From contig JAWAAR010000002.1 in NCBI GenBank assembly GCA_038999265.1, forward strand, positions 1 to 47,579: a stretch of DNA of 47,579 nt. The letters are read 5' to 3'. Each line of letters opens with the position of its first letter. The first letter of the stretch is position 1. Of the stretch, positions 4,805 to 47,579 are shown in pieces. Source of the stretch: Candidatus Aenigmatarchaeota archaeon (GTDB taxonomy: Archaea; Aenigmatarchaeota; Aenigmatarchaeia; CG10238-14). Below the pieces are notes generated by a model. The model was not told where the DNA came from, ran no database searches, and saw only the letters and a program-made list of their open reading frames with translations. Made by a program: the position numbers and the translations under genes.

Positions 4805-4912
4805 ATTTTCTTTCTTTTTACTATAATAATCGTAAATTACCGAAGAATAGCATCATCAGTGTTTAAATAACTGAATAACGTTTTTTATTAATAAGTAGTA
4901 TTGGGGGTATCC

Positions 4913-11591: not shown

Positions 11592-11610
11592 TTTTTTTCT
11601 ATTTCTTTTC
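11592..11610 (+). terminator. Oligo-T tract directly after the stop of the 836-aa gene; candidate archaeal intrinsic terminator
   Basis: GTTTTTTTCTATTTCTTTTC starts one base after the stop. Archaeal RNA polymerase is known to terminate at T-runs. Not tested here. Confidence 0.3.
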
Positions 11611-11646
11611 TATAGATTTATTATTCGGTTTTAAAGTTACATAAAA

Positions 11647-11683
11647 AATAAAAACCAAAAAAAACAATATTTGAATAGTGGTT
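11647..11683 (+). promoter_or_regulatory. Conserved upstream block shared with 36192-36229 (AATAAAAACC(C)AAAAAAAA..ATATTT..AGTGGTT); likely the promoter/5' leader of paralogous pilin genes
   Basis: Hand alignment of the two upstream regions shows near-identity over about 35 nt immediately 5' of both pilin-like starts. Confidence 0.4.
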
Positions 11684-11685
11684 TT

Positions 11686-22899: not shown

Positions 22900-22931
22900 A
22901 AAACTTTAATTCAGGAACCCAATTATTATTG

Positions 22932-28304: not shown

Positions 28305-28742
28305 ATGAAGGCTCAGATGTCATTAGAATACATAGTAAAGATGATGATACTTCTGGTTGTTGTTGTTGTTGTCATTGGGCTTATCTTAAAGTTTTCAAGT
28401 GATCTTAAACTCACAATAAAAAAACTGTTTGGTGAAGAAAAGAAAAACCTAGATTTTCCACAGATAATTGAGAAAAATGATTTCAGTGCAGGTGAAGTGT
28501 CGGTTTACATAGAAAGTTGCTATTCCCAGATGACCTCTTTGAAGGAAAGCGAACAGAAGGATATTGTTTGCTATTTATTAAAGTCTAGGAGTGGTTTTGG
28601 TTTTTCGCCGTCAGATATTAGATTGTCTTTGGATCTAACAGGCAGGGTTGAGTTTAATACACAAAACCCAGGACAATTCACAGGAAACGCACTTACAATA
28701 AAATTCCTCGATGCTGAAAATAAAATAGAAGTGAGTGATTGA
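28305..28742 (+). CDS. Class III signal peptide pilin-like protein (K-A-Q-M-S-L-E type)
   Basis: MKAQMSLEYIVKMMILLVVVVVVIGLIL: Q-x-S-x-E after a basic leader, as in EppA-processed archaeal pilins, with Glu at +5 if cleaved before Q. Confidence 0.7.
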   Translation: MKAQMSLEYIVKMMILLVVVVVVIGLILKFSSDLKLTIKKLFGEEKKNLDFPQIIEKNDFSAGEVSVYIESCYSQMTSLKESEQKDIVCYLLKSRSGFGFSPSDIRLSLDLTGRVEFNTQNPGQFTGNALTIKFLDAENKIEVSD

Positions 28743-28743
28743 T

Positions 28744-29232
28744 TTGAAGGGTATTGCCCTCAACACAATTATTTTTACATTGATAGCTCTTGCATCTGTT
28801 GTTATCCTTCTTTTTATTGTAAATTCTATAATACCTAACTTCATGGGAAAATCTTTTTGTAGGGTCTATCAAACTATATTTTCTTTGCCTTTAACAAGAA
28901 AACTGCAACCAAACATACCTGGATGCAGCTTGTTCCCAGAAACAAAAAGGATAATATTAAAAGAAGGTTCCTGCAACCCAGGAAACATAGCAAAATACAT
29001 AAAGGATTGTTGGGAAAAATCCCAGCAAGGCCGGGGTGGACAAACATTCATCTGTTTTGAATTATTTATGGAAAATGTCCAGTCGGGTTTCGGAGAAGAT
29101 GATGTAAAAAATCTAATAGATTCCCAAAACTTAAGAGATAGCATAGATTGGAAGATTGGAACCATAGAAGGGGAAGATTTAACTGTTATAATAAAGTACA
29201 ATTCTGAAGATGGTTTAATAGAAGTGATATAA
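28744..29232 (+). CDS. Class III signal peptide pilin-like protein
   Basis: In-frame TTG 28744 gives MKGIALNTIIFTLIALASVVILLF, matching the M-K-G pattern of its neighbours. The track start is GTG 28735. Confidence 0.6.
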   Translation: MKGIALNTIIFTLIALASVVILLFIVNSIIPNFMGKSFCRVYQTIFSLPLTRKLQPNIPGCSLFPETKRIILKEGSCNPGNIAKYIKDCWEKSQQGRGGQTFICFELFMENVQSGFGEDDVKNLIDSQNLRDSIDWKIGTIEGEDLTVIIKYNSEDGLIEVI

Positions 29233-30656
29233 TGGAGATAGATCTTGTAGGAGCAATTGCAATAGGCTTGGCCTTGATTATAGTTTCACTATTGCTTATA
29301 AAATTTATAGCTGATTTTTCAAGAACAAGTTTCCTGAAAAATGTCAAGGAAATGGTTTCAAATCTTTATTCTCAAATATTCGGAAAAAGCTATTACAATG
29401 TCTGCGAATCATTCAACAACAGTTATATTTCAATGAATGATTTTGAAACATTGATAAATGCATACTATCACAAGAGGTGTGGAGATGCCAAGGTTAATGT
29501 CATACTCAGCTTTTCTGTGACAAAAGATGATATAAATAAAATAGCAAAGGACTTGGGGGTAGCAAAAGATGGAAAACTGGTTATATATGAGAGTGCCAAA
29601 CCTGTTGGGATGGGAGGAATAATAATAGATGGGTACAAAAACCCAACTTCAAGGTTTGTGTTTAAAGCAAATGATAGAATACTTATATGGAATGATGGAT
29701 CACCGGAAAAGGATGTTCTATTGAATTTAACAGAAATTGAATGTGATCCATACACACTGAGCTGTAAACCAAGATCCCCTGAATTTGGTGTATGGATGAA
29801 CCCAATAACAAAGGATAAGAAAAGAGGAGAGGAATGTAGATACAACTCTGAATGCTCGGGTTCCATGGTTTGTGTCAATGGCCATTGCTGCTCACCCGGG
29901 GAAACATGGGACGGAACCAGTTGTGTATTTCAATATACCTTCACAATTCTATTTATACATTTAAAAGAGAAGGGGCAAACTGATGGTATAATGGAATATT
30001 CAAATTTTCAAAGTCTCGCAGAGAATTTCAGGCAGACATGGTCACAGATAACACCACTTTCCTCCTGTCTCAACAAGGTTGGAATTATTATTTCTGAATA
30101 TATTTGTGAAGTACCTGTACAAGATGACATCTGTTCAGGTGATAATAGGAAAGTTGAAAGAACTTACAAGGAAACAACTAAAAATATAATGGAATGTGTT
30201 GAGAAATTTGGATATGGAAATATACATACCAGAGTGGTGGGTGTAGTTAATAAAGAAAGTGTCTGTGGAAATTATTATGGATACAGCGGAGGTTACAATT
30301 CCCCAGTTGTTATTTCCAACCCATCATCAGATGTTTTAAGTGGAATTCAATTCTTGTGTTCTCATGAAATGGGGCATACTTTTGGTTTGTGTGATGAAGG
30401 TTACGGAAATTCTTTGTGTTCAGACTGTAGAAATGGTTTGGGTGGTATTTGCTCATTTGGTGGCTCGGGCTGTTTTGACTTAACTAATTCCAGAAATTGT
30501 AAAAGAAATGGTGGGACAGATTGCCCGAATGTTCCGGAAGGGCCAAGTATTATGTGTACATTTGATAGTTGTTCGAGAGGATGCTCATACGCAACAACCT
30601 TTGCACAAACAAGCTACCAACATTTACAAGGTGAATTGAATGAATATTGTGAATAG
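29232..30656 (+). CDS. N-terminally helix-anchored (pilin-like) Cys-rich HExxH zinc metalloprotease; paralog of the C-terminal domain of 26223..28265
   Basis: MEIDLVGAIAIGLALIIVSLLLIKF. HEMGHTFGLCDEGYG is encoded from 30363. Very Cys-rich flanks (CRYNSECSGSMVCVNGHCCSPG...). Confidence 0.75.
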   Translation: MEIDLVGAIAIGLALIIVSLLLIKFIADFSRTSFLKNVKEMVSNLYSQIFGKSYYNVCESFNNSYISMNDFETLINAYYHKRCGDAKVNVILSFSVTKDDINKIAKDLGVAKDGKLVIYESAKPVGMGGIIIDGYKNPTSRFVFKANDRILIWNDGSPEKDVLLNLTEIECDPYTLSCKPRSPEFGVWMNPITKDKKRGEECRYNSECSGSMVCVNGHCCSPGETWDGTSCVFQYTFTILFIHLKEKGQTDGIMEYSNFQSLAENFRQTWSQITPLSSCLNKVGIIISEYICEVPVQDDICSGDNRKVERTYKETTKNIMECVEKFGYGNIHTRVVGVVNKESVCGNYYGYSGGYNSPVVISNPSSDVLSGIQFLCSHEMGHTFGLCDEGYGNSLCSDCRNGLGGICSFGGSGCFDLTNSRNCKRNGGTDCPNVPEGPSIMCTFDSCSRGCSYATTFAQTSYQHLQGELNEYCE

Positions 30657-31191
30657 ATCACTTATCTTAATCTTGATTATTTTAATTCTACACCCAGCTA
30701 TAGCAAAAATAGAATTGCAAAATGTTTATTCTATTTATGTGGAGGTTTTCAGAAATGACAGTGTAAATCCGATAAGTGTTGGAACAGTGAGGGGAACAAT
30801 ATCACATTTTTCTTCTCAACAAAAAGATTATTCTGTAAAAGTTTTAGGTCCTAGAGATAAGATTTTATTTGAAAGGTATTTGGAAATACCTTTTGTAATT
30901 TATCTTGAACCAGAGGGTAGCTTGAACCTTGAAAGTAACTTGATCCAATTAAGAGTCCCATATTCAGAAGAAGCAACTAGGATAAGATTATACCATCTGG
31001 GAAAAATTATACTTGACATTGACCTGTCACAACTCTGCAACAAGAATTCTGTCTGTGATATAGGGGAAAATAAATACAATTGCCCTGAAGATTGCTACAA
31101 AAGAGAATTTTCGTGGGGAGTGTATATTTTATTAATCGCCGCTTTGATTTTAGTCTTGGTATTTCTAAAATTAAGAAAAACAAAGAAATGA
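30640..31191 (+). CDS. Signal peptide plus C-terminally anchored protein with the C-x(n)-C-P-x-D-C motif; partner of the upstream protease; paralog of 25582..26211
   Basis: LILILIILILHPAIA signal. LCNKNSVCDIGENKYNCPEDC. TM helix plus KLRKTKK. Overlaps the protease gene by 17 nt. Confidence 0.6.
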   Translation: MNIVNRSLILILIILILHPAIAKIELQNVYSIYVEVFRNDSVNPISVGTVRGTISHFSSQQKDYSVKVLGPRDKILFERYLEIPFVIYLEPEGSLNLESNLIQLRVPYSEEATRIRLYHLGKIILDIDLSQLCNKNSVCDIGENKYNCPEDCYKREFSWGVYILLIAALILVLVFLKLRKTKK

Positions 31192-31220
31192 TTTATTGTG
31201 GGGATTGTATAATTTTAAAT

Positions 31221-31781
31221 ATGAAGGGTGATGTTCAGGCAGTCCCGGCATTCATATATGTGATAATAGGTATTTTTGTCGGTTTAATTATGTTGCTGAT
31301 GGTTTACAAATATACGCCTATTTTTATGGAAAAGGAAAAAAATATAACCCTAAGTGGAAACAAGGAAAAAGTTGTCAAAAATATAGCAAAGATAATAGAA
31401 GAATGCTGGGAAGATAATAGGAGGGGTCTTGGTGATAAATCAAATATTTGCAGGGAGGTAACAATAGAGAATGGTTTGGATGTGAAGGAGATAGATGTTG
31501 TAAATTTTATTGATTGCAAGAAATTGCCCGACTCAAATTGTTATGTGTATCCTGATAAATCGGATGATTGTTCTTTCTGTACCTCACCATATTTCAAGGA
31601 TACAGACAAAATTTACTGGCTGGCCGAAGGAGGAAATACAGGCTTGACCATAAGTTATGATGGGGATAAAAGGAAGATAATAGTCAGTGGTTCACCCTGT
31701 ATTAATTGTCAACATTTGAGATATTGTAAGGTAAAGTGCATTGAGGAGGTAAATGATCCCAATTGTATCGGTGTATGTTAA
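31221..31781 (+). CDS. Class III signal peptide pilin-like Cys-rich protein
   Basis: ATG 31221 gives MKGDVQAVPAFIYVIIGIFVGLIMLLMVY. The track start at 31092 would overlap the previous gene by 100 nt, so I reject it. Confidence 0.6.
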   Translation: MKGDVQAVPAFIYVIIGIFVGLIMLLMVYKYTPIFMEKEKNITLSGNKEKVVKNIAKIIEECWEDNRRGLGDKSNICREVTIENGLDVKEIDVVNFIDCKKLPDSNCYVYPDKSDDCSFCTSPYFKDTDKIYWLAEGGNTGLTISYDGDKRKIIVSGSPCINCQHLRYCKVKCIEEVNDPNCIGVC

Positions 31782-32306
31782 ATGAAGGGTTTGGCAAACT
31801 GGATAATGGTGATTGGGGGTCTTATAATAGGGATAACTGTTTTTTATGCAGGAGTAAGCCTCCTTGTCAAACAGATGAGGATGGCTCAAGTTCAAACAGT
31901 TTTGGAAGAGGTTCAAGATTTTCACAACCAACTTTCAGCTGTTTGCAGGATGGGTCTAGGACACAAAAAATCCTATACCATCTCATTACCAGATAATGTA
32001 AGGGCTGTATATGTAGCAAATAAAAGTTATGAATTACCACCGGATAAAGTCTCAGTTATGATATCAAATAGAGTTATGAGTGTCGGAAATTACACTTGCA
32101 TCCAGTTCTTCAATAACAACCTTCCCGTTTGTGAATATATAGGTTGTTATGCCAACTTCACGTATATTGGTTCTCCTTCCATGAAACCAAGCCTACAAAC
32201 CTTGCTTGCAAGTATTCGTGGTAATTATCCTGTTTATGTATATTCTGTAAATATTGAAAAGATTGGACCTTATTTTTTGGATGTGATTTCCGAACCCAAA
32301 CCTTAG
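31782..32306 (+). CDS. Class III signal peptide pilin-like protein
   Basis: MKGLANWIMVIGGLIIGITVFYAGVSLL. The ATG abuts the preceding TAA. Confidence 0.65.
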   Translation: MKGLANWIMVIGGLIIGITVFYAGVSLLVKQMRMAQVQTVLEEVQDFHNQLSAVCRMGLGHKKSYTISLPDNVRAVYVANKSYELPPDKVSVMISNRVMSVGNYTCIQFFNNNLPVCEYIGCYANFTYIGSPSMKPSLQTLLASIRGNYPVYVYSVNIEKIGPYFLDVISEPKP

Positions 32307-32343
32307 AAATTAAAAATAAAAAAACAAATTATTTTTGAGAAAA

Positions 32344-32775
32344 ATGAAAGGGTCAACCGTACTTTCTGAAAATATACTAACGGCAATGTCAGTGATAATC
32401 TCTTTTATTCTTATGATAATAGTTGTCCAGATAGTGCTGAGTCAGCAATCTGAGAGAACTTATAGGGCCTTGTTTGACTCGATTGCAAGGGAAATAGCAA
32501 TGATAATAGACAGGTGTGCTTCAACTCCCGGAAATTTAAAAGTTGAATATAAAATACAGGAAGGTGTGCATGCGAATATAACAATAGACTACAAGTATGT
32601 TTTTGTCAATTATGGTGAGAGGATCTCAAGAAAACCATATTCTGGCCTGACTTATTCACCAGGTGTCAACAATTTCAGAATCTATGAGTTTATTGAACCA
32701 AAGGTACTTTGCTTTGTCAAGGATGATAATCAAATAACAATCTTTAACAGACCATGTGATCAGGTGTCTGTATGA
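32344..32775 (+). CDS. Class III signal peptide pilin-like protein
   Basis: ATG 32344 gives MKGSTVLSENILTAMSVIISFILMIIVVQIV. The track uses TTG 32335. Confidence 0.6.
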   Translation: MKGSTVLSENILTAMSVIISFILMIIVVQIVLSQQSERTYRALFDSIAREIAMIIDRCASTPGNLKVEYKIQEGVHANITIDYKYVFVNYGERISRKPYSGLTYSPGVNNFRIYEFIEPKVLCFVKDDNQITIFNRPCDQVSV

Positions 32776-33560
32776 AAGGGCAGGTTAGTTATATAATGAA
32801 ACCCATGATGTTGATAGGTATTATAATACTCTTGCTTTTCTTGATACAGACCTTATATTCCGGAAGAGGGAGAGAAAGGATGGCTGAAAAGAAATTGGAT
32901 ACCGTAAGTACAGCAACAAACATACTTCTTATATTGGCAAATTCCAAGCAGTGTTTGGCCTATCATTCATCTATCACTGACAAAACCCAGGGGATTGTTT
33001 TGAATGTAACCAAATTGGATATATTCCAAAATAACTATCAGGAAATAGAACCGGAATGTGCGAGAAATTATGAATTTGGATGGAAAGTTCAGGTCAGTCA
33101 AATGGGAAGGCCTGTTGGGGGATCCAGTAATGTCGAGAGGGCTTGGACCTTTGGGGCAAGAGATTTCTCAAAGGATAGTTCATTGAATAATGAGGTGAGA
33201 TTCTGGATACCGGTTGGAATAAAGTATCCGAAAGGTGATGCTAGATGTGGTGCAAACAACAGAGATGGGTGCGTGAAACTTGGAAAGATGGATATATTAT
33301 TGGTGGATGGCGAGTTGGAAAAATTGGCTGGTTTCTTTGACTGGAGTTGTATGATGGGTAGACTTGGAAGAATGACCTCAACTTCAACAGAAGTCTCCGT
33401 AAGTCAAAAGGTAACGTATGATTCCGCAAGCAACAGACTTTGTGTTGGAAGTTCATGTAGAAGATTACAATGTCCGTTGCTTTATTTTGATGGCTTCAAC
33501 TCAAAAGGAACTTATAGTCTCAAGTTGAATTATCAATCAGGAAATTTGGTGGTTGGGTGA
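32772..33560 (+). CDS. Class III signal peptide pilin-like protein
   Basis: MKGQVSYIMKPMMLIGIIILLLFLIQ. ATGA start/stop overlap with the previous gene. Confidence 0.65.
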   Translation: MKGQVSYIMKPMMLIGIIILLLFLIQTLYSGRGRERMAEKKLDTVSTATNILLILANSKQCLAYHSSITDKTQGIVLNVTKLDIFQNNYQEIEPECARNYEFGWKVQVSQMGRPVGGSSNVERAWTFGARDFSKDSSLNNEVRFWIPVGIKYPKGDARCGANNRDGCVKLGKMDILLVDGELEKLAGFFDWSCMMGRLGRMTSTSTEVSVSQKVTYDSASNRLCVGSSCRRLQCPLLYFDGFNSKGTYSLKLNYQSGNLVVG

Positions 33561-34861
33561 AAGGTCAGACGATGGAGATGATGGGTTTCTTGATATTAGC
33601 TGTCACAATTATTGTAGTAATACTTTATATGAGAACTCATCTTGCCGGAACTTATGGGAGAAGTTTCTCCTCTCTGGTTCAAAGGCAAGAGGTTGAAGGT
33701 TTTAGGGCAGGGGCAACGACTGTTCTTCAAACGACAGAAGAAAAGACTGGAAAGAGTTTATTGGAATTGTTGGGGATTGCATCATACAATGGTGCCTATA
33801 ATTTAAACAATCCCTGGGAATATGATTTTGGACCGGGGAGAGGGGTTGTAAACTTAAGGGATGAGATAACATGGAGAATGGATGAGATTTATGGTCAAGG
33901 TAAATGGTATATAAAAATACCTTTTCCTGATGTAATTCCTAGATACCAAATGGTTATGATTGTTGATAGTTCTGGAAGTTTATGTGATGATTTTCAGAAT
34001 ATAAAAAATAACTTAAAGAATATAGTCGAAAAACTTAGACAAAAATACAACCTAGCCGTTACAATTTATATGTTACCCGGTGGACAGGAATGCTGTGGAA
34101 CTGATGGGGGTAAGCTAATGTGTGAAGGGTTGTTTGAAACAGAAAAATATCTTCATTGTATAGATTTGGATCGGAACAGTTTGCAAAATGTAAATAAAAA
34201 TATTTGTAGGCAAGAATATAGACCAATTAATAATGAGGACTGGGGAAGAGGTTTAGCATGTGCTGTTGAAATAGGCCCATATGAGGGATGGTATGATTTT
34301 ACAGCAAAAATAGGTGTCATCCTATCTGATGAATTGACAACCGGAAGTGAAAATTTTGGCAATCCAGAAACATCAACTAGTTTGGAAATAGGAATATTAG
34401 CAGCTAGAGGAACGGGGGCAAAACCTTTTATGAATGTATTTCCATTGAAAGCATATACCGGAAAAGATTGTTGCCCGGATTGTAATTGCGAAAATCCAGA
34501 TCAAAAAACAGAATATAAATGTCCGTTATGTCCTGAAAAAATTTGTTCTGTATGTGTAAGAGGTGATGGTATAGATTGGCAAATTTTCAATAAACCTTCC
34601 TGTCGGTATGAAAGTGAATTGATAAGTCAGATGGATAGATTAGCTTCAGAGACGATGGGGGAAAGATATAACTTAAATGATAATGATGTTTCAAGGGCTA
34701 TTGAAGAAATTTTTAAAAATCACGATTTTAGTGGTATAAAAACTTACATTGATTTGGGAACCGAACCCCTGAATAAAAGAAACTTAAATTCAATAGTAGT
34801 ACCGGCACCTGTTCCTTATGTGGGTGGATATGCAAATGTTTATATTTACACTTGGGTATAA
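33557..34861 (+). CDS. Pilin-like N-terminus fused to a von Willebrand factor A (MIDAS) domain, with a Cys-rich C-terminal part
   Basis: GTG start gives MKGQTMEMMGFLILAVTIIVVILYM. MVMIVDSSGSL (D-x-S-x-S MIDAS, encoded at 33965-33979) at the start of an alternating strand/helix region. GTGA overlap with the previous gene. Confidence 0.7.
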   Translation: MKGQTMEMMGFLILAVTIIVVILYMRTHLAGTYGRSFSSLVQRQEVEGFRAGATTVLQTTEEKTGKSLLELLGIASYNGAYNLNNPWEYDFGPGRGVVNLRDEITWRMDEIYGQGKWYIKIPFPDVIPRYQMVMIVDSSGSLCDDFQNIKNNLKNIVEKLRQKYNLAVTIYMLPGGQECCGTDGGKLMCEGLFETEKYLHCIDLDRNSLQNVNKNICRQEYRPINNEDWGRGLACAVEIGPYEGWYDFTAKIGVILSDELTTGSENFGNPETSTSLEIGILAARGTGAKPFMNVFPLKAYTGKDCCPDCNCENPDQKTEYKCPLCPEKICSVCVRGDGIDWQIFNKPSCRYESELISQMDRLASETMGERYNLNDNDVSRAIEEIFKNHDFSGIKTYIDLGTEPLNKRNLNSIVVPAPVPYVGGYANVYIYTWV

Positions 34862-34869
34862 AATATTTG

Positions 34870-36171
34870 ATGCTCAATAATAAAGGTGTTTCTTTTTCAA
34901 TAATTCCAATAATAGCACTAATTGGGGTTCTTGGATTAGCCATCTGGGCTGGTTATCAATTATCAGTAGGGTCTAATATCCAAAGTCAATCTGGAATTTC
35001 AACACAGGATACAGCTGCTGATAATCTTCAAAGATTAAAAGATAAGTTAACGGAGGATCTTAGTTTTTCTGCTTCAGAAGCTTCACTTGATATAGCAAAA
35101 AATGGAGGAACAGGAGCCACAACTTATTGGTACTGTAGTGGAACCCCAATACCACCAGAACCAGATGAGGTGGAATATGCTATGTCGACTTTAACTCTAG
35201 GCAATCTAAATGGATATATTTCTACATTGAGAGAACCTGAAAATCCAATTTTCATAGAAATGGAACCAGTAATACCCGATTACACATGTGTTGGTATTTT
35301 TGAACCATCATCTACTCAGTGTGATAATCAGAATTCAGTAAATTGTGAGAGATTTGGTGTCACCGCTTCCGATGGACCCGATGGAAAAATAGAAGTTAGA
35401 AAACCGTCTTATGCTAGCGATGATGATGATTTGGAAGCTTATGTTAATGATAATAGGTTTTATTGGTTGTACTATAGACTTTATAATAATTTTGATTTAC
35501 TAACATCAAATGCAAATATATTGGCAGAAATAACACCAGGTTGCGGTTATTATGTTTTAGATAATGGTGAATTAATCTCGATAGAAGAGTATGAAAGAAG
35601 AGTGTGGCAACCACTAATCGATGATGGGTGTGTTGATCAAAACAGACAACCACTTCCAATACCACCTGCCCCCTTTGAATGTCCAAGTAGAATTTCAGCA
35701 GTCTTAGCAGATATCGCAGCAAAGAGAAGTGGTGCTGTATATGGTTTTGTTGATGGATCATTTGCAAGAAGTGAAATAGAAAACAGACTAAGAGAATTTT
35801 GTAACAATGCAAAAAATTTATTTGATAATTATGTAACTTGTTCATGGGAAATTCAATGTTTCTCTAGTGGAGGGGGTGAGTGTTTAGCAAGTAATTGTGA
35901 AAGATCCACCAATCCACCTATTTGTAACACAGCACCATCACTTTCTCTTCAAGGCCAAATTAATGAAATTTGGGGAGGGAGCACGAGGTTCAAAATATCA
36001 TTTGAAGATTCCAAATTCAATATTTACTCTAATGAGAGAGAACCACAACATATGGTTTGGAATGTAAATGGTGCTATAAACTTCAACTATGCTGGTTGTC
36101 CATTATTGGTTTATGTTGGGCCAGGGGGGAGTTCCGGAGGATCCCAACTTCCACCAGCACCAGGATCATGA
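34870..36171 (+). CDS. Large pilin-like protein (N-K-G leader plus hydrophobic helix), Cys-containing, unknown domain
   Basis: ATG 34870 gives MLNNKGVSFSIIPIIALIGVLGLAIWAGY (the track uses TTG 34852). Last long gene of the co-oriented run. Confidence 0.6.
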   Translation: MLNNKGVSFSIIPIIALIGVLGLAIWAGYQLSVGSNIQSQSGISTQDTAADNLQRLKDKLTEDLSFSASEASLDIAKNGGTGATTYWYCSGTPIPPEPDEVEYAMSTLTLGNLNGYISTLREPENPIFIEMEPVIPDYTCVGIFEPSSTQCDNQNSVNCERFGVTASDGPDGKIEVRKPSYASDDDDLEAYVNDNRFYWLYYRLYNNFDLLTSNANILAEITPGCGYYVLDNGELISIEEYERRVWQPLIDDGCVDQNRQPLPIPPAPFECPSRISAVLADIAAKRSGAVYGFVDGSFARSEIENRLREFCNNAKNLFDNYVTCSWEIQCFSSGGGECLASNCERSTNPPICNTAPSLSLQGQINEIWGGSTRFKISFEDSKFNIYSNEREPQHMVWNVNGAINFNYAGCPLLVYVGPGGSSGGSQLPPAPGS

Positions 36172-36191
36172 TCTATCACGTCAAAGAAAAC

Positions 36192-36229
36192 AATAAAAAC
36201 CCAAAAAAAATATTTTATATAAAGTGGTT
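36192..36229 (+). promoter_or_regulatory. Conserved upstream block, the copy matching 11647-11683
   Basis: AATAAAAACCCAAAAAAAATATTTTATATAAAGTGGTT aligns with the region upstream of 11686 and contains a TTTATATA TATA-like element. Confidence 0.4.
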
Positions 36230-36231
36230 GA

Positions 36232-36813
36232 ATGAAAAAAGCCCAGATGTCACTTGAGATGATTATCGGATTATTAATTTTACTTGTAGTTGCTGTAGTT
36301 GTTATAAGAATATTTTTGAAAGGTATGAGCCAAAATCCACAGGATCAGTTTGAACAGACATTAAAGGACATGAACTTTATAGGGGAATGTGACAGACTGT
36401 GCAATGAGTATAAAAATAGTGGTACAAGAGCTGCTTTGGCAAAATTCTGCTACACTAAGATGACTGGAAATCCAGATTTAAACAAGAATGGGAAGATTGA
36501 CAAATTAAAAGCTAAGACAAAACTCCTTGAAATCTGCGAGGATTCAGTTTACTGCTTTCATATGACAACCTGTGAGACTGATGCCGGAATTATAGACTGG
36601 AGTGACTGTAGGGATGCTGTGTGTAATGAATATATAGAAATATATACTAGTGCTGGATATGGCGATGCATTAGATAGAGCCAATAGAAAAGTTTCAAGTT
36701 TATTCTCACTAGGATCATGTACCGGTATAGGAGATGAAGAAAATTGGATGAAATTGTTTTTCAGTAATCCATCAAACAGAGATGATCTCGAACATCCATG
36801 TGGAACCACATAA
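36232..36813 (+). CDS. Class III signal peptide pilin-like Cys-rich protein; paralog of 11686..12498
   Basis: MKKAQMSLEMIIGLLILLVVAVVVIRIF. The shared core is CNEYKNSG...FCYTKMTGNPDLNKNGKIDKLKAKTKLLEICEDSVYCFH. Confidence 0.7.
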   Translation: MKKAQMSLEMIIGLLILLVVAVVVIRIFLKGMSQNPQDQFEQTLKDMNFIGECDRLCNEYKNSGTRAALAKFCYTKMTGNPDLNKNGKIDKLKAKTKLLEICEDSVYCFHMTTCETDAGIIDWSDCRDAVCNEYIEIYTSAGYGDALDRANRKVSSLFSLGSCTGIGDEENWMKLFFSNPSNRDDLEHPCGTT

Positions 36814-37100: not shown

Positions 37101-38102
37101 ATGTCTAAGTCATTAGATTCAGATGGTTATTGGAATGAGGTTAAAAGATTAAGAGTAGAATTTGAAGAAAAACTGAGAGGAAATTTCGGGGAAGATGAAG
37201 TAAGGTTTCTTCTTTTAACATTTGATCTTGCGGCAAGGATTCATGAAAGAGAGATGAGAAGGACAGGGAGATATTTCATCCAGCATCCATACGATGTTGC
37301 CCTGTATTTATTTGAAATTGGAATGGACCCAGTATCAATAGCCACCGGTCTTCTGCACGACACCGCCGAGGCTGTAATTGAGGAAAATGGTAAATCTAGA
37401 GAAGAAGCCATTGATTATATAAGAAGTTCATATTTACAAATCTGTGGAGATTATGTAGACAATATCCTAACTGTCATGTCACTGGTTTCTGCACTCACAA
37501 GAGAAAGAGGGGAAATTTATTATGATTCAATTGCAAGAATATTTTCCCTTGGACCTGAGGAAAGATCAAGAACACTTATTATAAAGGCTGGTGGAGACAG
37601 AAGATTCAATGTTATTGAAATGGAAGGTTTTACTCCACAAGAAAAGTTAAGATCAGCCTATAAAAGTCTCTGTATAGCTCATGAAATTAAAAGATGGTTG
37701 ATATCAGGAGAAGATGTATCTTTGAGGGAAAGTGTAGAAAGAGCTTTTAGGGATTTGGTAACATATACCAATGCAGCCATTTCTTCTGTAATTGCAGGAA
37801 TTATACAAAAATATCAGAGACAACCCGAAATTGGAAAAAGGTTAATTGAATTAGAATACGAATCAGATATTTACTGTTCACAAGGGGGTTATTCTAAAGT
37901 TACTCAATCCAGACCAGGAAGCCACTTTGATGGTATAATAGAAAAGTACGACCAAATGATTAGAACTCACGAAATATCTGAACAAGATGATATCCAAATC
38001 TATGCTGATGCATTAGGACTCAAAAAGGTTTTGACACTTCTTTTGTTAGATCCAACATACCTCATAGAAGGTTTCAGTTTAAATGGAATTTCATACAATT
38101 AA
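37101..38102 (+). CDS. HD-domain protein of the RelA/SpoT (p)ppGpp-hydrolase type, with no synthetase domain
   Basis: AARIHEREMRRTGRYFIQHPYDVALYLFEIGMDPVSIATGLLHDTAEAV follows the SpoT/Mesh1 hydrolase pattern (H-x(n)-HP..VA...-LLHD..ED). 333 aa. Confidence 0.65.
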   Translation: MSKSLDSDGYWNEVKRLRVEFEEKLRGNFGEDEVRFLLLTFDLAARIHEREMRRTGRYFIQHPYDVALYLFEIGMDPVSIATGLLHDTAEAVIEENGKSREEAIDYIRSSYLQICGDYVDNILTVMSLVSALTRERGEIYYDSIARIFSLGPEERSRTLIIKAGGDRRFNVIEMEGFTPQEKLRSAYKSLCIAHEIKRWLISGEDVSLRESVERAFRDLVTYTNAAISSVIAGIIQKYQRQPEIGKRLIELEYESDIYCSQGGYSKVTQSRPGSHFDGIIEKYDQMIRTHEISEQDDIQIYADALGLKKVLTLLLLDPTYLIEGFSLNGISYN

Positions 38103-38908: not shown

Positions 38909-40264
38909 TTACCATAACCCACTTAACTCTTCCTTAAAAATAGACCTCAATTTTTTCTTGTATTTTTTAGGTATAGTTTCAAAGGTGTGAATTCCAAAAA
39001 ACATCCTTCTCAATTCATCCTCTCTTTTTTTAACATCCTTAAAGAACTTTTTCTTGAAATAATCTATCAGATAACCCTTGACTCCATTCTCAGAAGCCAA
39101 TAAAAATGCCAACATCTGTTCATCTTTCCCGACACCAGATCGATCGTAAGCATTGTCGTTACTTTTATTGAATATCGGATAATATTTCATGTGGTACTTG
39201 GAAAGCATGTCCTCCTCAAAACCCAATTTTTTTGTATCTATCCCCAGAGCCTTAAAAATTATGTACAATCTCGCGCACTTGGAACAATTACAGCACCATC
39301 TATCATACTTATTTCCTTCAGTCAAATCCGGGAAGCAGGAATATTGGTATTTCCCTATTTCTGGATATCTTTCATGAAGTATCTTGGTGATTGAAATATC
39401 ATGGAGAGGTTCTACAAAACTAACAACATTTAATTCTGTATTGAAAACCATGTTCAATATATTATTTAATTCCTTCATCCAGACCACAGTTTGATCGAAT
39501 TCTGGATAGCATGTATATCCATCCCTGTTTATATATGTGAAATTGCAACTCTGCTCATTTCCAAAAACCATCATTTTTGATTTGTAATTTATCATATATG
39601 GGAGCATGAGAAATGCATATTCTGTCATTAAGTGGGATACAATATAATCGAGATCACTCTTTAAATTAAAGTATCTATAGTCATGCAAAACCATAGTTTC
39701 ATTCTTCAATTTTTCTATCTTAACACCAAACTCCTTTTCAAAGGGGATACACATTTTTTCCTTGAATTCATTTTCCAGGGGTGCCCCTCTTTCCATTACC
39801 CATATAGGATGAATTTCAAGGCCAATCTCCCGAGCAATTGAAAAATTAAAAAGGCTATCCTTGCCAAAACTGAAACTCATCACACACGATTCATTCAATT
39901 TATGCAGATCTATATTTGGTCTCTTTATTTCAAAACCCTTGAATCTAAAAATAGAGTCATTCAAAAGTTTGAAGCAATCCTCTGTGGATAGGCCATTTGC
40001 ATCTCCAATTGAAGGAGCGCTCATCGTATAAATAAATGATATGAATGATTTTAATAACGGGTAATTTGTGTTTAGATTTACTTTGGTTTCCTTGAACATC
40101 AATGGTAGATGAACTGATTTTAAAAATATGTAGTTGTCTAGGAAAAATCTCCTGAAATCCTCCGGAAGGTTTATCCATATATTTTGAGGGTATTTAACAC
40201 TAAAGTTCTCTCCTTTAAAATTTAATACCGGACCTTCACTTGTTTGTTTTATTGAAATATTCAT
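38909..40264 (-). CDS. Uncharacterised protein, candidate PP-loop/PAPS-reductase-like adenine nucleotide alpha-hydrolase; paralog of 40261..41718
   Basis: SFSFGKDSLFNFSIAREIGLEIHPIWV resembles an S-G-G-K-D-S PP-loop. C-terminal motif RWCCNCSKCARLYIIFKALGID. Aligns along its length with the upstream gene product. Confidence 0.55.
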   Translation of the reverse strand: MNISIKQTSEGPVLNFKGENFSVKYPQNIWINLPEDFRRFFLDNYIFLKSVHLPLMFKETKVNLNTNYPLLKSFISFIYTMSAPSIGDANGLSTEDCFKLLNDSIFRFKGFEIKRPNIDLHKLNESCVMSFSFGKDSLFNFSIAREIGLEIHPIWVMERGAPLENEFKEKMCIPFEKEFGVKIEKLKNETMVLHDYRYFNLKSDLDYIVSHLMTEYAFLMLPYMINYKSKMMVFGNEQSCNFTYINRDGYTCYPEFDQTVVWMKELNNILNMVFNTELNVVSFVEPLHDISITKILHERYPEIGKYQYSCFPDLTEGNKYDRWCCNCSKCARLYIIFKALGIDTKKLGFEEDMLSKYHMKYYPIFNKSNDNAYDRSGVGKDEQMLAFLLASENGVKGYLIDYFKKKFFKDVKKREDELRRMFFGIHTFETIPKKYKKKLRSIFKEELSGLW

Positions 40265-41718
40265 TTTCTTTTCCTCAGGGATTTTATTTCTTTTCTCACA
40301 TCTTTTAATGTTTTTCTAAATATCTTGTGTATCTTCCTCTTCCATTGAATAGGAGTTATTGATTCATCGTGAAGGGTAAAGTATTTATCAACCAATTCAT
40401 CAAACCTTTCCTCAGCTTCTTTGAAAGCTGGTGAATTTGCGAATTTTAAGACCAATGGATCTCTATTTCCCCTTAAGTATGTTAAATAGAAGGCAAGAAG
40501 TTGCTCATCATAATTTACCCCGAAAGAATCAAATCCTGTCCCGGCAGCCATTCTACCAAACACATTGTAAAATTTCTCAAATTTAGGAAGGAACATATTG
40601 TCTTGAAATCCTGCCTCTTTTATTGGATCAACACCAATCGCCGACAAATAGACAAATATTCTAGCACATTTAGAGCAATCCGCACACCATCTTTTGTCTC
40701 TGGCACTCTCAGTCTCAGCCCAACATGACATCAGATATTTCAAACTATATCTATATTTGTTTTTAAGTATCGAGAGTATTGCTATCTCGTGAAGCCCCTG
40801 GAGGAAGGTTGTTGTATAAACTTCACCTTCGGACAATGCTTGAGTTATTATTGAAAGTTCCTCGGTTGCCTGATTTGACTGCTCATAATCGGGGATAACT
40901 TTCAAATTCTCTCTGTCATAAAAGAATTCATTGCAACTCGCCTCATTAGAAAATACTATGTAACCAGCCTTTTTCTTGTAGGCAAAAGGTAAGGATAAAA
41001 GGCACCAAGATGTCAGAGCGAGCTCCCACCCAAACCATCCTTCTCCATACTCTCTAAGATCACCAAGAGGATTTTCCATATAGTAAACCTTTTCCTTTGT
41101 TTCTTTGCTAAATTTTTCTATAAGTTCTTTCTTATGTTTACCGGCAAAAAGTTCCGTTGGCTCATTGAAGTAAACTAGAGTTGGATTCAAACCAATTTCT
41201 TTTGAAATATTATAAGTTAAAAAACTATCCTTTCCAAAGGTGAATGGGATTATTATATTTTCGTCTATTGTTTCTGGAAATTTGGGGGGAACATCTTTTG
41301 TTTCTGAAAAGAATGCCCTAGAATTTAACATTGTTTTCAAGAGTGGAAAAACTCCTGTCCCCCTTTTTCCTTTGCATAAATACCAATATGCGGGCAAAAA
41401 TCTCATGAAACATTGATTTGCCCATGAGTATGTATGTGGGTATCCAGTATTGTATTCTAACCTGATTGTTTCATTCAATAAAAAGGGCAAGTGAGCTGTA
41501 AAAACATAGGTGATATTATCGACAAGTTTGACTTTATTTTCCTTTGGATAATTCTTCCAAATTCCATTTGGGTATTCTATCAATAAACTCCTTTTCAGGG
41601 GCCTAGATAAAATATCTATTTTTATTCCCCTTCTCGTTGATTTTCCATAGATTTTCACAGGTATTTCTCTTTCATGCCAAGCCCTCCATTTTCTAGACTT
41701 CTGATTATTATTTTCCAT
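40261..41718 (-). CDS. Uncharacterised protein, candidate PP-loop/PAPS-reductase-like adenine nucleotide alpha-hydrolase; paralog of 38909..40264
   Basis: PFTFGKDSFLTYNISKEIGLNPTLVYFNEP and RWCADCSKCARIFVYLSAIGVD. 4-nt overlap with the downstream paralog and 11-nt overlap with the upstream ATP-grasp gene. Confidence 0.55.
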   Translation of the reverse strand: MENNNQKSRKWRAWHEREIPVKIYGKSTRRGIKIDILSRPLKRSLLIEYPNGIWKNYPKENKVKLVDNITYVFTAHLPFLLNETIRLEYNTGYPHTYSWANQCFMRFLPAYWYLCKGKRGTGVFPLLKTMLNSRAFFSETKDVPPKFPETIDENIIIPFTFGKDSFLTYNISKEIGLNPTLVYFNEPTELFAGKHKKELIEKFSKETKEKVYYMENPLGDLREYGEGWFGWELALTSWCLLSLPFAYKKKAGYIVFSNEASCNEFFYDRENLKVIPDYEQSNQATEELSIITQALSEGEVYTTTFLQGLHEIAILSILKNKYRYSLKYLMSCWAETESARDKRWCADCSKCARIFVYLSAIGVDPIKEAGFQDNMFLPKFEKFYNVFGRMAAGTGFDSFGVNYDEQLLAFYLTYLRGNRDPLVLKFANSPAFKEAEERFDELVDKYFTLHDESITPIQWKRKIHKIFRKTLKDVRKEIKSLRKRK

Positions 41719-42718
41719 TCATCCCAAACCTCTTCATGGCTGCATCTAAAATTGATAATATAATTTCATTATAAGTCATCCCAAGTGCATAGCATGACTT
41801 GGGGAATCTTGAATTTTCCTTTGGATCTGGTATCAAACCAGGAATAGGATTTACTTCCAAAACATTAGGTATATTTTTATTATCAAGTCTCATATCAATC
41901 CTGCATAAATCACGACAGCCAAGCGCATTGAATGTTCTTATTGCTATATTTTTTATCTTCTTCTCGAGTTTTTTGTCTATTTCCGCAGGACATTTTACCA
42001 TCTCTATCCCAGTCTCAGGAGAATCCCAAAACCACTTTACCTCGTAACAATCAAACTTTGGAGCTTCATCAGGAAGTTTGTCAAATAAAATTTCAACTAT
42101 GGGCAAGACCTTTGGTGGATTTCCTAAAAGTGATACAGTAAACTCCCTTCCTGTGAGAAATTCCTCAACCAAGGCTGGTTGATTGTACTTTTTTATTACA
42201 AAATCAACTCTCTTTCTTAATTCCTCCTCATTGTTAACCAAAGACTCAGCTGTGATACCTTTACTCGAACCTTCCCTGTTCGGTTTTACTATAAGTGGAA
42301 ATCTAAGTTTTTTGTTTAATGGTTGGTTAGAAGAGGTGAACAATTGGAACTTAGGTGTTGGTATTTTATAATATGAAAGTATCTCCTTTGTCTTTGTTTT
42401 GTCAAGTGCTATTGCCAAAGTTAACACATCAGAAGCTGTGTATGGTATACCCAAAAATTCTAACATAGCTGGTATCTGTGATTCTCTACTGTTACCTCTT
42501 AAACCCTCTGCTATGTTGAACACAAAATCTAGATTAGAATTTTTCAGTTTTTCATATGGATCCTTATTGCAATCTATCATTATTACTTCATGTCCTCCTG
42601 ATTCTAATGCGGCCTTTATGCTGTTTGCAACTGATATGTCATCAAACTCTACAAAGTCATCAGAAGAATTTCTGTCGTATCCCTCGGGAAATGGGTTGAA
42701 GGTAAGTCCTATTCTCAT
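41708..42718 (-). CDS. ATP-grasp ligase of the D-alanine--D-alanine ligase family
   Basis: FPLIVKPNREGSSKGI, VEEFLTGREFTVSLLG and CRIDMRLDNKNIPNVLEVNPIPGL parallel the Ddl motifs (VKP..EGSS.G; EE.I.GRE.TV..LG; R.D......... E.N..PG). Confidence 0.8.
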   Translation of the reverse strand: MRIGLTFNPFPEGYDRNSSDDFVEFDDISVANSIKAALESGGHEVIMIDCNKDPYEKLKNSNLDFVFNIAEGLRGNSRESQIPAMLEFLGIPYTASDVLTLAIALDKTKTKEILSYYKIPTPKFQLFTSSNQPLNKKLRFPLIVKPNREGSSKGITAESLVNNEEELRKRVDFVIKKYNQPALVEEFLTGREFTVSLLGNPPKVLPIVEILFDKLPDEAPKFDCYEVKWFWDSPETGIEMVKCPAEIDKKLEKKIKNIAIRTFNALGCRDLCRIDMRLDNKNIPNVLEVNPIPGLIPDPKENSRFPKSCYALGMTYNEIILSILDAAMKRFGMNGK

Positions 42719-45860: not shown

Positions 45861-47579
45861 CTAACCCCAATATTTCCTGTTCTTGATAAAAGTTCTTTCC
45901 GCCTCGAGTAAAGTTTTCAAGAAATCTTTTTCATCTTCATACATCCGAGACAAAACTCTCTTGGCAGTTTTCGGTCCAATACCTCTAGTAGCTAATGCCA
46001 TCACAGCTTTTTTTCCATAAACTATTATTAGATCAGAAGTTTGAGATAAACTTTTGTATCTTCTTTCCTCCTCAATGTCCAAAGGCAAACCTCTAATCTT
46101 CTTTTTAATTATATTAACAGAATCTGTTTGCATTCTTCCTGTCAAACCAATTAATTTTGCCTTGCAATTTTGGCATCTTATCTCCTGAGGCAATTCTTTT
46201 ATTAAATAGATCTGGGACCACTCTCCACAATTCAAGCAAACCAATCTAACTATTTTGTTGTTTAATCTATTTGAGAAAATTTCAATTATCTGATTGTCTG
46301 GTTTTCCTGAACCTATTATTTCCGAACCTTCCTGCAACCCGAGTTCTCCCAATGGTGAAATTCCCTTCTTGAATATCAATTTCAACTTCCCTTCTTTTAT
46401 TTTTCTGAGAAAATCACTTGCTAGTTTTAAGTCCAATTTATCTGTGTATATTTCTCTTAATGTCTCCTCCCAGATTGGGGTGCCCGAATATATTTCTATT
46501 ATTCTATTGACCGCAACCTTCCCATATTCAGCATCCCTCCTTATTATCCCAAACCTTTTTGCTATATGGATGAATCTCCATTGAAATATTTTGGACTCAG
46601 AAATGTTTTTTTCAAGATAGAAATTTAGTTGATTAGGTTTTGAATTAAGTATAATTTCAGATAGTAATTTTTGGTTTATGTTTTTTGTTTCAAGGATTAT
46701 CCTGTAGGGGTCTGTCTTTAGTCTGACCGCACCTATTTTTTCAGAAAGTATTGAAGACAAAAATCTTCCTATTGTCTCATTTCCCTTTGTTCCAATGCAT
46801 GTGTGTATTATTGTTGTTTCACCCTGCATTTCAATTAATATTATTTTATCAGTAGGCACAACTCCAAATTTCTTTTGATTTTTTATTATTTCAACCATCC
46901 TTTTTGCACAAGAATCATCTACCGGATATCTTCTCATCAAATCATTTATATCCGGATTTATTGCCAAATCATTCCTCAATCTTCCAACCTCCTGAGCAAC
47001 TTCATATGGCACAGGCATCAAATCTCCTTCCCACCCAGGTATCTCAGCTTCCAATTCTCCCGAAGGTTCCACAAATATCTTATTTCTATCAACACTGACT
47101 ATTTTCCAAATTTCACCCTTCATTACAAAAACTGCCCCAGGTGTCCCATGAATAGCAACAAATTCCTCATCTAATGTCCCAACTTTTTGGTCCGAAATAA
47201 TATTAATCACTGTATAGTTTTTTGTGTCTGGTATCGTGCTGAGGTTATTGAAATAGTATAACAAACCTTTTTTTGAAGGCTTGATTTTTTCATCCAGAAA
47301 AAGATATCTGTTAATGTTCAATATATTCAAAACTTCCAGAAATTTTTCTTTTGTTAGATTTCTGTAAGGATATGCCTTTTTTATGATTTGAAAGATTTCA
47401 TCCTGGTTTAAACTTGGATTATCCCTTGTTATTCCGACTATTTGGTTTGCCAATACATCGAGTGCTTCCTCGTGACTCTCCAAGGGTTCTATCTCTCCAG
47501 AAAGGGCCTGCCTGGCTATTACTGCAGATTCAAATATATCATCCAAATCTGTAGTTATAATAACCCCCTCAGATTTTTT
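45861..47579 (-). CDS. Lhr-type large DEAD/DEAH helicase, C-terminal (DEAD_assoc) portion; the 5' end lies beyond the window
   Basis: The frame stays open from the track start (TTG 47546) to the window edge (KKSEGVIITTDLDDIFESAVIARQAL...). The region resembles the Lhr post-helicase domain and has a late C-x-x-C ... C-x-x-C zinc ribbon (CLNCGEW...CQNCKAKL) and RGIGPKTAKRVL. Family call by resemblance only. Confidence 0.65.
   Translation of the reverse strand, partial: KKSEGVIITTDLDDIFESAVIARQALSGEIEPLESHEEALDVLANQIVGITRDNPSLNQDEIFQIIKKAYPYRNLTKEKFLEVLNILNINRYLFLDEKIKPSKKGLLYYFNNLSTIPDTKNYTVINIISDQKVGTLDEEFVAIHGTPGAVFVMKGEIWKIVSVDRNKIFVEPSGELEAEIPGWEGDLMPVPYEVAQEVGRLRNDLAINPDINDLMRRYPVDDSCAKRMVEIIKNQKKFGVVPTDKIILIEMQGETTIIHTCIGTKGNETIGRFLSSILSEKIGAVRLKTDPYRIILETKNINQKLLSEIILNSKPNQLNFYLEKNISESKIFQWRFIHIAKRFGIIRRDAEYGKVAVNRIIEIYSGTPIWEETLREIYTDKLDLKLASDFLRKIKEGKLKLIFKKGISPLGELGLQEGSEIIGSGKPDNQIIEIFSNRLNNKIVRLVCLNCGEWSQIYLIKELPQEIRCQNCKAKLIGLTGRMQTDSVNIIKKKIRGLPLDIEEERRYKSLSQTSDLIIVYGKKAVMALATRGIGPKTAKRVLSRMYEDEKDFLKTLLEAERTFIKNRKYWG

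Follow-up and report, generated by a model that had tools for sequence, protein, structure and literature searches.

Three overlapping genes on the minus strand of a 47,579-nucleotide (nt) stretch of DNA from Candidatus Aenigmatarchaeota archaeon (contig JAWAAR010000002.1), hereafter the 47.6-kb window, encode a ligase of the Ddl ATP-grasp family and two longer proteins, paralogs A and B. Both paralogs are related at a distance to MurL, the sole ATP-dependent peptide epimerase of this type to have been characterised, and both are predicted to have the PP-loop fold of QueC. A pair consisting of such a ligase gene and one MurL-like gene recurs in many archaea and in some bacteria. The genes and motifs of the locus are as follows, with the basis of each entry in brackets.

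41708..42718, minus strand: Ddl-family ATP-grasp ligase, 336 amino acids (aa) (open reading frame (ORF) scan)
41708..41718, minus strand: 11-nt overlap of the ligase stop and the paralog B start, ATGGAAAATAA (junction sequence)
40261..41718, minus strand: paralog B, MurL-like PP-loop protein with a predicted QueC fold, 485 aa (ORF scan)
41221..41244, minus strand: variant PP-loop FTFGKDSF, paralog B residues 159-166 (translation and alignment A2)
40660..40725, minus strand: four-cysteine motif of paralog B (C332, C345, C348, C351) (translation and alignment A2)
40261..40264, minus strand: 4-nt ATGA in which the stop of paralog B and the start of paralog A overlap (junction sequence)
38909..40264, minus strand: paralog A, MurL-like PP-loop protein with a predicted QueC fold, 451 aa (ORF scan)
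39851..39874, minus strand: variant PP-loop FSFGKDSL, paralog A residues 131-138 (translation and conservation)
39269..39337, minus strand: C-x13-C-x2-C-x2-C of paralog A (C310, C324, C327, C330) (conserved in 95 of 95 sequences)

An earlier reading made from the letters alone, the sequence-only reading, had described three genes on the minus strand with overlaps of 11 and 4 nt, and the ORF coordinates and junction sequences agree with it. A GAGG-type purine run is present 8-14 nt 5' of both downstream starts, those of paralogs B and A, and the ligase, paralog B and paralog A genes are predicted to be one translationally coupled unit. The two longer proteins had been called paralogs, and BLASTP aligns them with 29% identity over 432 residues (E 1e-58). 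The motifs that had been quoted as shared are all present in the checked translations, including FSFGKDSL / FTFGKDSF and the further pairs RWCCNCSKCARLY / RWCADCSKCARIF and GVGKDEQMLAFLL / GVNYDEQLLAFYL. Residues G134, K135, S137, C310, C324, C327, C330, Q258 and Y300 are invariant in 95 of 95 family sequences. Because the G-K-x-S sequence, the four cysteines, Q258 and Y300 do not vary among these members, the motifs that the paralogs share are not due to chance. In paralog B the invariant positions of alignment A2 are F161, G162, K163 and S165; this protein keeps the loop and the cysteines and departs from the family at the near-invariant positions E164A, G249N, P286G and R299K.

Predicted fold of the paralogs and their relation to MurL

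AlphaFold2 models of both paralogs were built from family alignments, with a predicted local distance difference test score (pLDDT) of 92.5 and a predicted TM-score (pTM) of 0.92 for paralog A, and a pLDDT of 90.7 and pTM of 0.90 for paralog B. In a Foldseek search of the PDB, paralog A matched QueC (3bl5) with an E of 3e-5 and a target TM of 0.81. The best matches were QueC 3bl5, QatC and Cap9, followed by further PP-loop ATP pyrophosphatases such as NcsA, TtuA, TilS, GMP synthetase and LarE; that to QatC is full length, with a TM-score of only ~0.4. The PP-loop-like segment and the QueC-like cysteine cluster had been recognised from the sequence, and the predicted structures of both paralogs, which best match QueC, QatC and Cap9, support this. 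The GKDS of paralog A, which had been likened to a nucleotide-binding loop, lies in the model between a strand (124-130) and a helix (135-146), the PP-loop position. Judged from these models, the paralogs have the fold of QueC-type PP-loop ATP pyrophosphatases.

QueC (PF06508, 3bl5) and the paralogs share the PP-loop Rossmann core and a C-x(n)-C-x2-C-x2-C motif after the core. The zinc motif of QueC is C-x8-C-x2-C-x2-C (PMC13329287), whereas the spacing after the first cysteine is 13 in the MurL-like family, and the loop is [ST]FGKDS as opposed to the SGGxDS of QueC. The MurL-like proteins also add an N-terminal domain of ~120 aa and a C-terminal helical domain of ~110 aa. The four-cysteine motif is a probable zinc site as in QueC, and in homologues the cysteine region gives Pfam QueC matches (P0083 residues 256-328, 1.2e-5; also P0212). 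PF06508 has no match in the window proteins and reaches sporadic homologues only, one of them at 25.4 bits against a threshold of 22.

The sequence-only reading had not been able to assign the paralogs to a named family. They can now be placed near MurL, far below the cut-off of the family model. The NCBIfam MurL model matches paralog A at 6e-8 (residues 107-337, model positions 120-338 of 447) and paralog B at 2e-4. It also matches 32 of 32 members of a diverse family alignment (best E 4e-12), these matches span the whole catalytic core, and no other family is matched consistently. Some homologues carry a precomputed match to Pfam PF26298 (MurL_epimerase_C). The two window proteins score 31.5 and 19.8 bits where 700 is required, ~4% of the equivalog cut-off, and the paralogs are therefore distant relatives of MurL and not orthologues. 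The consistent MurL matches lead us to expect carboxylate adenylation with release of AMP. The sequence-only reading had proposed carboxylate-activating or amide-forming enzymes; for the MurL-like proteins the outcome is possibly an epimerisation and not an amide.

A sequence search of the PDB with the paralogs gave nothing useful, Pfam gave no match above threshold (DUF6395 and DUF6005 were matched by the window proteins below it), and a tblastn search of 72,556 plasmids with paralog A, aimed at true MurL, gave no match. Additional Pfam domains are lacking even in the long members of the family (517-596 aa), and the MurL-like side therefore offers no informative fusion. The closest homologues of paralog A are 50-65% identical to it and of the Aenigmatarchaeota type.

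The ligase and its pairing with MurL-like genes

The first gene of the unit had been assigned to the D-Ala-D-Ala-ligase family of ATP-grasp enzymes, and both the Pfam match (Dala_Dala_lig_C, 2e-38) and the matches to NCBIfam Ddl models agree. The ligase falls below the curated Ddl cut-offs, with 207.4 bits against 243 for PRK01372 and 179.3 against 245.65 for TIGR01205; its best PDB sequence matches are all Ddl/Van ligases (E 5e-31). The active site was mapped on Escherichia coli DdlB (sequence identical to PDB 2dln) for 67 ligases that partner MurL-like proteins. The ATP/Mg and acyl-phosphate residues are conserved across these 67, and the window ligase retains DdlB K97, K144, E180, K215, R255, D257, E270 and N272 as well as E15. 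In the D-Ala pocket of the window ligase, S150 and S281 are kept and three residues are replaced (H63->E, Y216->W, L282->R, DdlB numbering). Since the residues for ATP/Mg and the acyl-phosphate are kept while those of the pocket are changed, the window ligase appears to be a competent enzyme with a different substrate pocket, probably a divergent ligase and not a D-Ala-D-Ala ligase.

The partner ligases as a group thus share the subfamily and the ATP/Mg and acyl-phosphate residues of the D-Ala-D-Ala and Van-type ligases (DdlB 2dln, VanA, VanC/VanG) and differ from them in the pocket. Position 63 is Glu in 56 of the 67. At position 216 the five commonest residues are Trp (31), Thr (18), Ser (11), Phe (4) and Arg (2), and Tyr is not among them; Trp is found in the DPANN type, the window included, and Thr or Ser in the Bathyarchaeia type. 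At position 282 the DPANN type has Arg and the Bathyarchaeia type has Phe. The ligases from the candidate phyla radiation (CPR) are likewise non-canonical (C150, F216, D281, T282). The window ligase differs further from the Ddl/Van enzymes in an N-terminal insertion and in having no murein context. As a lead, a pocket with E63 beside E15, W216 and R282 would be suited to a diamino acyl donor, for instance beta-lysine, and to an acceptor that carries a hydroxyl or one more carboxylate. An aromatic residue and Arg at 216 and 282 recall the D-Ala-D-Ser signature F250/R322 of VanC2, which is also no more than a lead.

How widely is this pairing distributed? When 1.84 billion cluster representatives were searched exhaustively with a profile, 188 clusters matched at E<=1e-30 and 608 clusters at E<=1e-10; none of the lower-ranking matches of this search qualified for membership of MurL. 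A scan of the GTDB species representatives found 292 MurL-like loci. The best 80 of the 292 were surveyed for their hosts, and neighbourhoods were counted in the 78 loci where the ORF caller found the MurL-like gene. The hosts of the best 80 are many Bathyarchaeia, Thorarchaeota, Borrarchaeum, Nitrososphaeria, Altiarchaeales and Iainarchaeum, and in addition Aenigmatarchaeota, Woese- and Nanoarchaeota, Gottesmanbacteria and a small number of further bacterial metagenome-assembled genomes; the taxonomic labels of several of these assemblies are automatic and may be wrong. A Ddl-like gene is present within 300 bp of the MurL-like gene in 54 of the 78 loci, on the same strand in 52 and with a gap of 10 bp or less in 30. 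Where at least 1.5 kb of sequence is available on both sides, it is beside the MurL-like gene in 43 of 59 loci. Two MurL-like genes are present in 10 of the 78 loci and two ligase genes in 9, as expected for stepwise tailoring of a peptide.

The conserved unit is the pair of ligase and MurL-like gene and not the trio. A check of gene neighbourhoods had been suggested for the three genes together; the pair is linked in 54 of 78 loci as stated above, and the three-gene set is not conserved, the exact order ligase, B, A being absent from the other loci compared. In the nearest relative of paralog A (65% identical) the ligase gene is followed by A with a 4-nt overlap and there is no B. In the nearest relative of paralog B (81% identical) the order is ligase, B, GTPase and there is no A. 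Both aminomutase/ligase/A-type clusters (L010, L001, L004) and ligase/B-type clusters (L088, L089) have ligases that share 68-72% identity with that of the window. As the A-type and B-type relatives each pair singly with the ligase, they are alternative partners of a single ligase lineage, and the window joins the two.

The clade of paralog B is unusually well conserved (60-81% identity), and its named members are Patescibacteria and one Micrarchaeota bin. Paralog B is 77-81% identical to proteins on DPANN-type contigs (e.g. L088 5531-8050) and shares 74% identity with one encoded by an 812-kb contig labelled Patescibacteria by NCBI (L090 7001-9567), which also encodes MurJ, 5 kb from the locus, and a bacterial S30AE-type ribosome hibernation factor. 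The ligase adjoining the B orthologue on that contig is only 43% identical to the window ligase. This difference, 74% for B and 43% for the adjacent ligase, argues for transfer of paralog B across domains as a single gene. In a neighbour-joining tree B groups with the CPR clade on a long branch and A with the Aenigmatarchaeota clade. The near-identity of the B proteins of DPANN archaea and Patescibacteria would be a clean example of cross-domain gene sharing. At the Patescibacteria locus (L090 9661-12453) the pair is followed by a non-KamA radical-SAM gene (337 aa), a MazG-like gene and a gene for a 451-aa DUF6938 protein, possibly a further accessory set.

The genes around the pair differ between lineages. 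DPANN clusters have a KamA-family aminomutase gene, the ligase gene and the MurL-like gene, in that order. In three loci the aminomutase and ligase are fused in one ORF of ~700 aa (L013 45-2138, L016 4947-7004, L063 5750-7876), and L030 1242-2867 is also listed with the fusion ORFs. The fusion proteins consist of radical SAM, LAM_C and Ddl-like ligase domains, the ligase part being 57% identical to the window ligase. The unfused aminomutase of L001, aligned to 2a5h, keeps D293 and D330, which we take to bind the epsilon-ammonium group of lysine and to be replaced in glutamate 2,3-aminomutase; because both are kept, the cluster aminomutase is assigned to the beta-lysine-forming type. In Bathyarchaeia, Thorarchaeota, Borrarchaeum and Nitrososphaeria a ThrC-like pyridoxal phosphate-dependent enzyme is encoded beside the MurL-like, ligase and GNAT genes, and AIG2-like, Amidohydro_3 and enolase-superfamily genes often follow in these Bathyarchaeia/Asgard-type clusters. 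Some Woese- and Nanoarchaeota (L005 167-4774, identical to L020; L034) have two MurL-like genes, a DgcN-like gene (DUF1611; 169 bits against a cut-off of 480) and DapF, with no Ddl-like ligase, and here the acylating enzyme seems to have been swapped. In Gottesmanbacteria a spermidine-synthase-like gene adjoins the pair.

The window itself is AT-rich (G+C ~35%). Genes for fibrillarin and Nop5 were found upstream of the trio by Pfam scan, and these neighbours identify the window as archaeal. A YlqF-type GTPase gene is 33 nt downstream on the same strand. None of the sister-cluster aminomutase, PALP, GNAT, AIG2, DgcN-like, spermidine-synthase-like, MR_MLE and amidohydrolase proteins has a tblastn match in the window. 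There are no Mur genes or Mur ligases among the 27 window ORFs scanned, and in the whole 47.6 kb there are no tRNA genes (tRNA scan) and no Rfam families at the gathering threshold.

Several other features of the window were recorded. Convergent with the YlqF-like GTPase gene is a gene (37101-38102, plus strand) for a 333-aa protein with an N-terminal HD_4 / RelA-SpoT-type hydrolase domain (TIGR00691, 1.6e-10), a possible alarmone-hydrolase-like protein in an archaeon. Positions 28305-36813 (plus strand) contain a series of same-strand ORFs, four of which were scanned and have no Pfam match. Two translated ORFs (36232-36813, MKKAQMSLEMIIGLLILLVV; 34852-36171) have a short charged start that leads into a hydrophobic helix. 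In this they resemble the type IV pilin-like proteins of archaea, and the series may be a locus for a pilus or another surface structure. Large predicted surface proteins with CARDB, thrombospondin-type-3 and NosD/beta-helix repeats are encoded at 9081-14075 and 19290-20405 (plus strand). The adjoining genes at 17477-18616 and 20402-22122 encode ABC transporters; surface proteins beside such transporters are typical of episymbiotic DPANN-like archaea. Many window ORFs have no Pfam match (e.g. 4034-5998, 7049-8410, 22929-25043, 26223-28265). At 45861-47546 (minus strand) an Lhr-type helicase gene, of which only the C-terminal WH_Lhr/DEAD_assoc part is seen, reaches the window edge. In the window, L006 (5314-7950) and ~20 Bathyarchaeia loci (e.g. 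L022 2822-5671), no more than a few kb separate an Lhr-type helicase gene from the MurL-like gene, which could be coincidence or old synteny.

A possible pathway and its alternatives

We tentatively favour a small-peptide pathway in which ligation comes first and the C-terminal carboxylate is then adenylated so that the residue can be inverted. In the first step the Ddl-family enzyme would join two amino acids through an acyl-phosphate, as its family and its retained catalytic residues suggest. The substrates would be other than D-Ala and D-Ala, and in the sister clusters the acyl donor is probably beta-lysine from the adjacent or fused lysine 2,3-aminomutase. In the second step, for which MurL homology and the QueC-type PP-loop fold are the guides, the MurL-like protein would bind ATP at the [ST]-F-G-K-D-S loop and adenylate the terminal alpha-carboxylate of the peptide, releasing pyrophosphate and then AMP. 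In the third, for which the analogy with MurL is the sole guide, the N-acylated residue in its activated form would lose its alpha-proton, be reprotonated on the other face and be hydrolysed. The net outcome would be a one-way L-to-D inversion without a racemase. Paralogs A and B may act on different peptides or residues, or may form a heterodimer. MurL itself depends on ATP and Mg and releases AMP, and the one residue that it inverts, to D-Glu, is the terminal L-Glu added beforehand by its partner ligase MurD2 (PMC5808125, PMC8788868).

This order of ligation and inversion is supported by two features of the clusters. Each cluster type has an enzyme that would N-acylate an amino acid, whether ligase, GNAT or DgcN-like, and families connected with D-amino acids or N-acyl-amino acids recur nearby, namely DapF, an Amidohydro_3-family amidohydrolase and an enolase-type racemase-like gene. 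For the alpha-proton of an activated carboxylate to be lost easily, the amino acid has to be N-acylated. The accessory genes of the sister clusters can be sorted into those for N-acyl or D-amino-acid chemistry and those, such as lysine 2,3-aminomutase, that would supply an unusual amino acid. The sequence-only reading had proposed a small peptide-like or envelope-associated molecule. A small-peptide role remains the most economical reading of the coupled unit and of the linkage in 54 of 78 loci; nothing ties the locus to an envelope, the scanned window ORFs having no Mur genes and the ligase lacking the D-Ala pocket residues.

Several points weigh against ligation followed by inversion. The MurL scores are a small fraction of the cut-off, and with matches this weak the outcome of the reaction may differ from that of MurL. 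There is no candidate general base that is strictly conserved in the family, E237 being present in 88 of 95 sequences and C240 in 80 of 95. In 22 of the 78 loci no ligase was found within the 7-kb flanks, and no lysine aminomutase was found in the 47.6-kb window by tblastn. Finally, if beta-lysine were the C-terminal residue, epimerisation at the alpha-carbon would be chemically meaningless.

Could the same adenylation lead to an amide? The C-terminal carboxylate may be converted to a carboxamide or joined to an amine, giving a neutral N-acyl dipeptide amide such as a compatible solute. We consider this unlikely, yet it is the strongest of the alternatives. QueC turns a carboxylate first into an amide and then into a nitrile, and AsnO amidates N-acetylglutaminylglutamine. 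The ATP-grasp, GNAT and PP-loop proteins of the Bathyarchaeia/Asgard clusters are the enzyme set of the Ngg/AsnO pathway to the osmolyte N-acetylglutaminylglutamine amide (NAGGN), and the archaeal lysine 2,3-aminomutase, known from the pathway to the osmolyte N-epsilon-acetyl-beta-lysine, recalls that pathway too. QueC, QatC and Cap9, which have the closest folds, all make C-N bonds from an adenylated carboxylate (PMC13279940). However, the sequences of the family match MurL and not QueC, the QueC Pfam model being reached by sporadic members only. In addition, there is neither a fused glutaminase nor one conserved in the neighbourhood, whether as domain or as subunit, and the D-amino-acid-type neighbours (DapF, DgcN-like, enolase-type racemase) would be left unexplained.

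Another alternative, which we regard as improbable, is salvage: the Ddl-like enzyme would capture scavenged D-amino acids in a dipeptide and the MurL-like enzymes would turn D into L at the expense of ATP, making the residues usable. Binding of D-amino acids is native to the Ddl family, the sister clusters hold DgcN-like, DapF, Amidohydro_3-family amidohydrolase and enolase-type racemase-like genes, and the carriers are sediment dwellers and episymbionts with reduced biosynthesis. Such a route would cost two ATP per residue, and a conserved dipeptidase or transporter was not found in the clusters. The aminomutase link suggests biosynthesis instead, and MurL works strictly from L to D (PMC5808125).

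A QueC-like role in protein modification or anti-phage defence, as for QatC and Cap9, or in 7-deazaguanine synthesis, has very little probability. QatC, over its full length, and Cap9 are among the top Foldseek matches, but the TM-score of the QatC match is low, the neighbours are housekeeping genes, and the MurL-like family is absent from the 2026 survey of PF06508. QatA/B/D, TGT, QueD, QueE and other queuosine genes are absent from the Pfam-annotated gene tables and from the annotated recurrent neighbour families. A defence role was rejected when PADLOC gave no match for all three proteins.

Canonical synthesis of murein or pseudomurein precursors by a true Ddl and a true MurL is the least probable of all and was rejected as largely refuted by pocket residues, cut-offs and gene context: Ddl and MurL are the best family names and the CPR locus has MurJ 5 kb away, but the window is archaeal (fibrillarin, Nop5) with no Mur ligase in the 27 ORFs scanned, the ligase is under the Ddl cut-offs and has H63->E, Y216->W and L282->R, the MurL scores are ~4% of the cut-off with no MurD2 partner, and the CPR ligases are non-canonical too.

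If ligation followed by inversion is nevertheless extended to all carriers, a so far unrecognised module, spread over Asgard archaea, Bathyarchaeia, Nitrososphaeria, DPANN, CPR and scattered bacteria, would make a small peptide with a D-residue or beta-lysine, without a racemase, by means of the ligase and MurL-type inversion, and would be exchanged between episymbiotic archaea and bacteria. This broader proposal is a doubtful one. If it were true, archaea without murein would deliberately make D-amino-acid peptides, and MurL, at present a curiosity confined to a few routes to murein, would belong as one branch to a large QueC-fold family that activates the carboxylates of peptides. What would be the role of a D-residue or beta-lysine peptide in an archaeon that has no murein?

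Comparison with known systems

The sequence-only reading had suggested that the pathway may be undescribed, and our literature searches found no paper describing the ligase/MurL-like module, nor one stating a QueC-type fold for MurL. In reviews MurL is said to have no conserved domain that is known, and the 2026 survey of the QueC family leaves MurL, ATP-grasp partners and epimerases unmentioned. A QueC PP-loop fold with an invariant four-cysteine site would give MurL and its larger branch a mechanistic frame and residues to mutate. The pairing of Ddl-like and MurL-like genes is a testable two-enzyme cassette, which extends to the aminomutase fusion, in lineages with little-known small-molecule metabolism. 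Pairs of a ligase and a one-way epimerase would also be of practical interest for the enzymatic synthesis of D-amino-acid peptides.

Three known systems resemble parts of the clusters. NAGGN is made by Ngg (ATP-grasp/GNAT) and the PP-loop amidotransferase AsnO, and these enzyme classes match the Bathyarchaeia/Asgard-type cluster; the protein families within the classes differ, and there is no glutaminase domain in the MurL-like clusters. In the AblA/AblB (N-epsilon-acetyl-beta-lysine) and PylB/PylC (pyrrolysine) systems a radical-SAM mutase likewise feeds an unusual amino acid to an acyl- or peptide-forming enzyme, PylC being a Ddl-like ATP-grasp enzyme. Here the mutase is of the KamA type, is sometimes fused to the ligase and is followed by the MurL-like protein, and the window itself has no mutase. 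DgcN/DgcA and the enolase-type epimerases share the concept of N-acylating an amino acid so that its alpha-carbon can invert, and DgcN-like and MR_MLE genes occur in sister clusters of the MurL-like gene. These enzymes use no ATP, and their folds are unrelated to that of the MurL-like proteins.

The closest likeness is to MurD2/MurL of Xanthomonas, Micromonospora and others, in which a ligase gene is paired with that for a ~450-aa ATP-dependent enzyme of the same family (PMC5808125, PMC8788868). The logic is shared: a residue is added first, and the terminal carboxylate is then activated. The proteins are homologous at a very great distance (~30 bits, the cut-off being 700), and the partner here is a Ddl-type ATP-grasp enzyme (54 of 78 loci) and not a MurD-type one, no Mur ligase being seen in the loci. 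The hosts here are mostly archaea without murein, the MurL-like gene is often duplicated, and the accessory genes are those for an aminomutase, GNAT or DgcN-like protein. A UDP-muramyl peptide is an unlikely substrate here. By analogy, the module may be the MurD2/MurL principle carried out with a different class of ligase and in different hosts.

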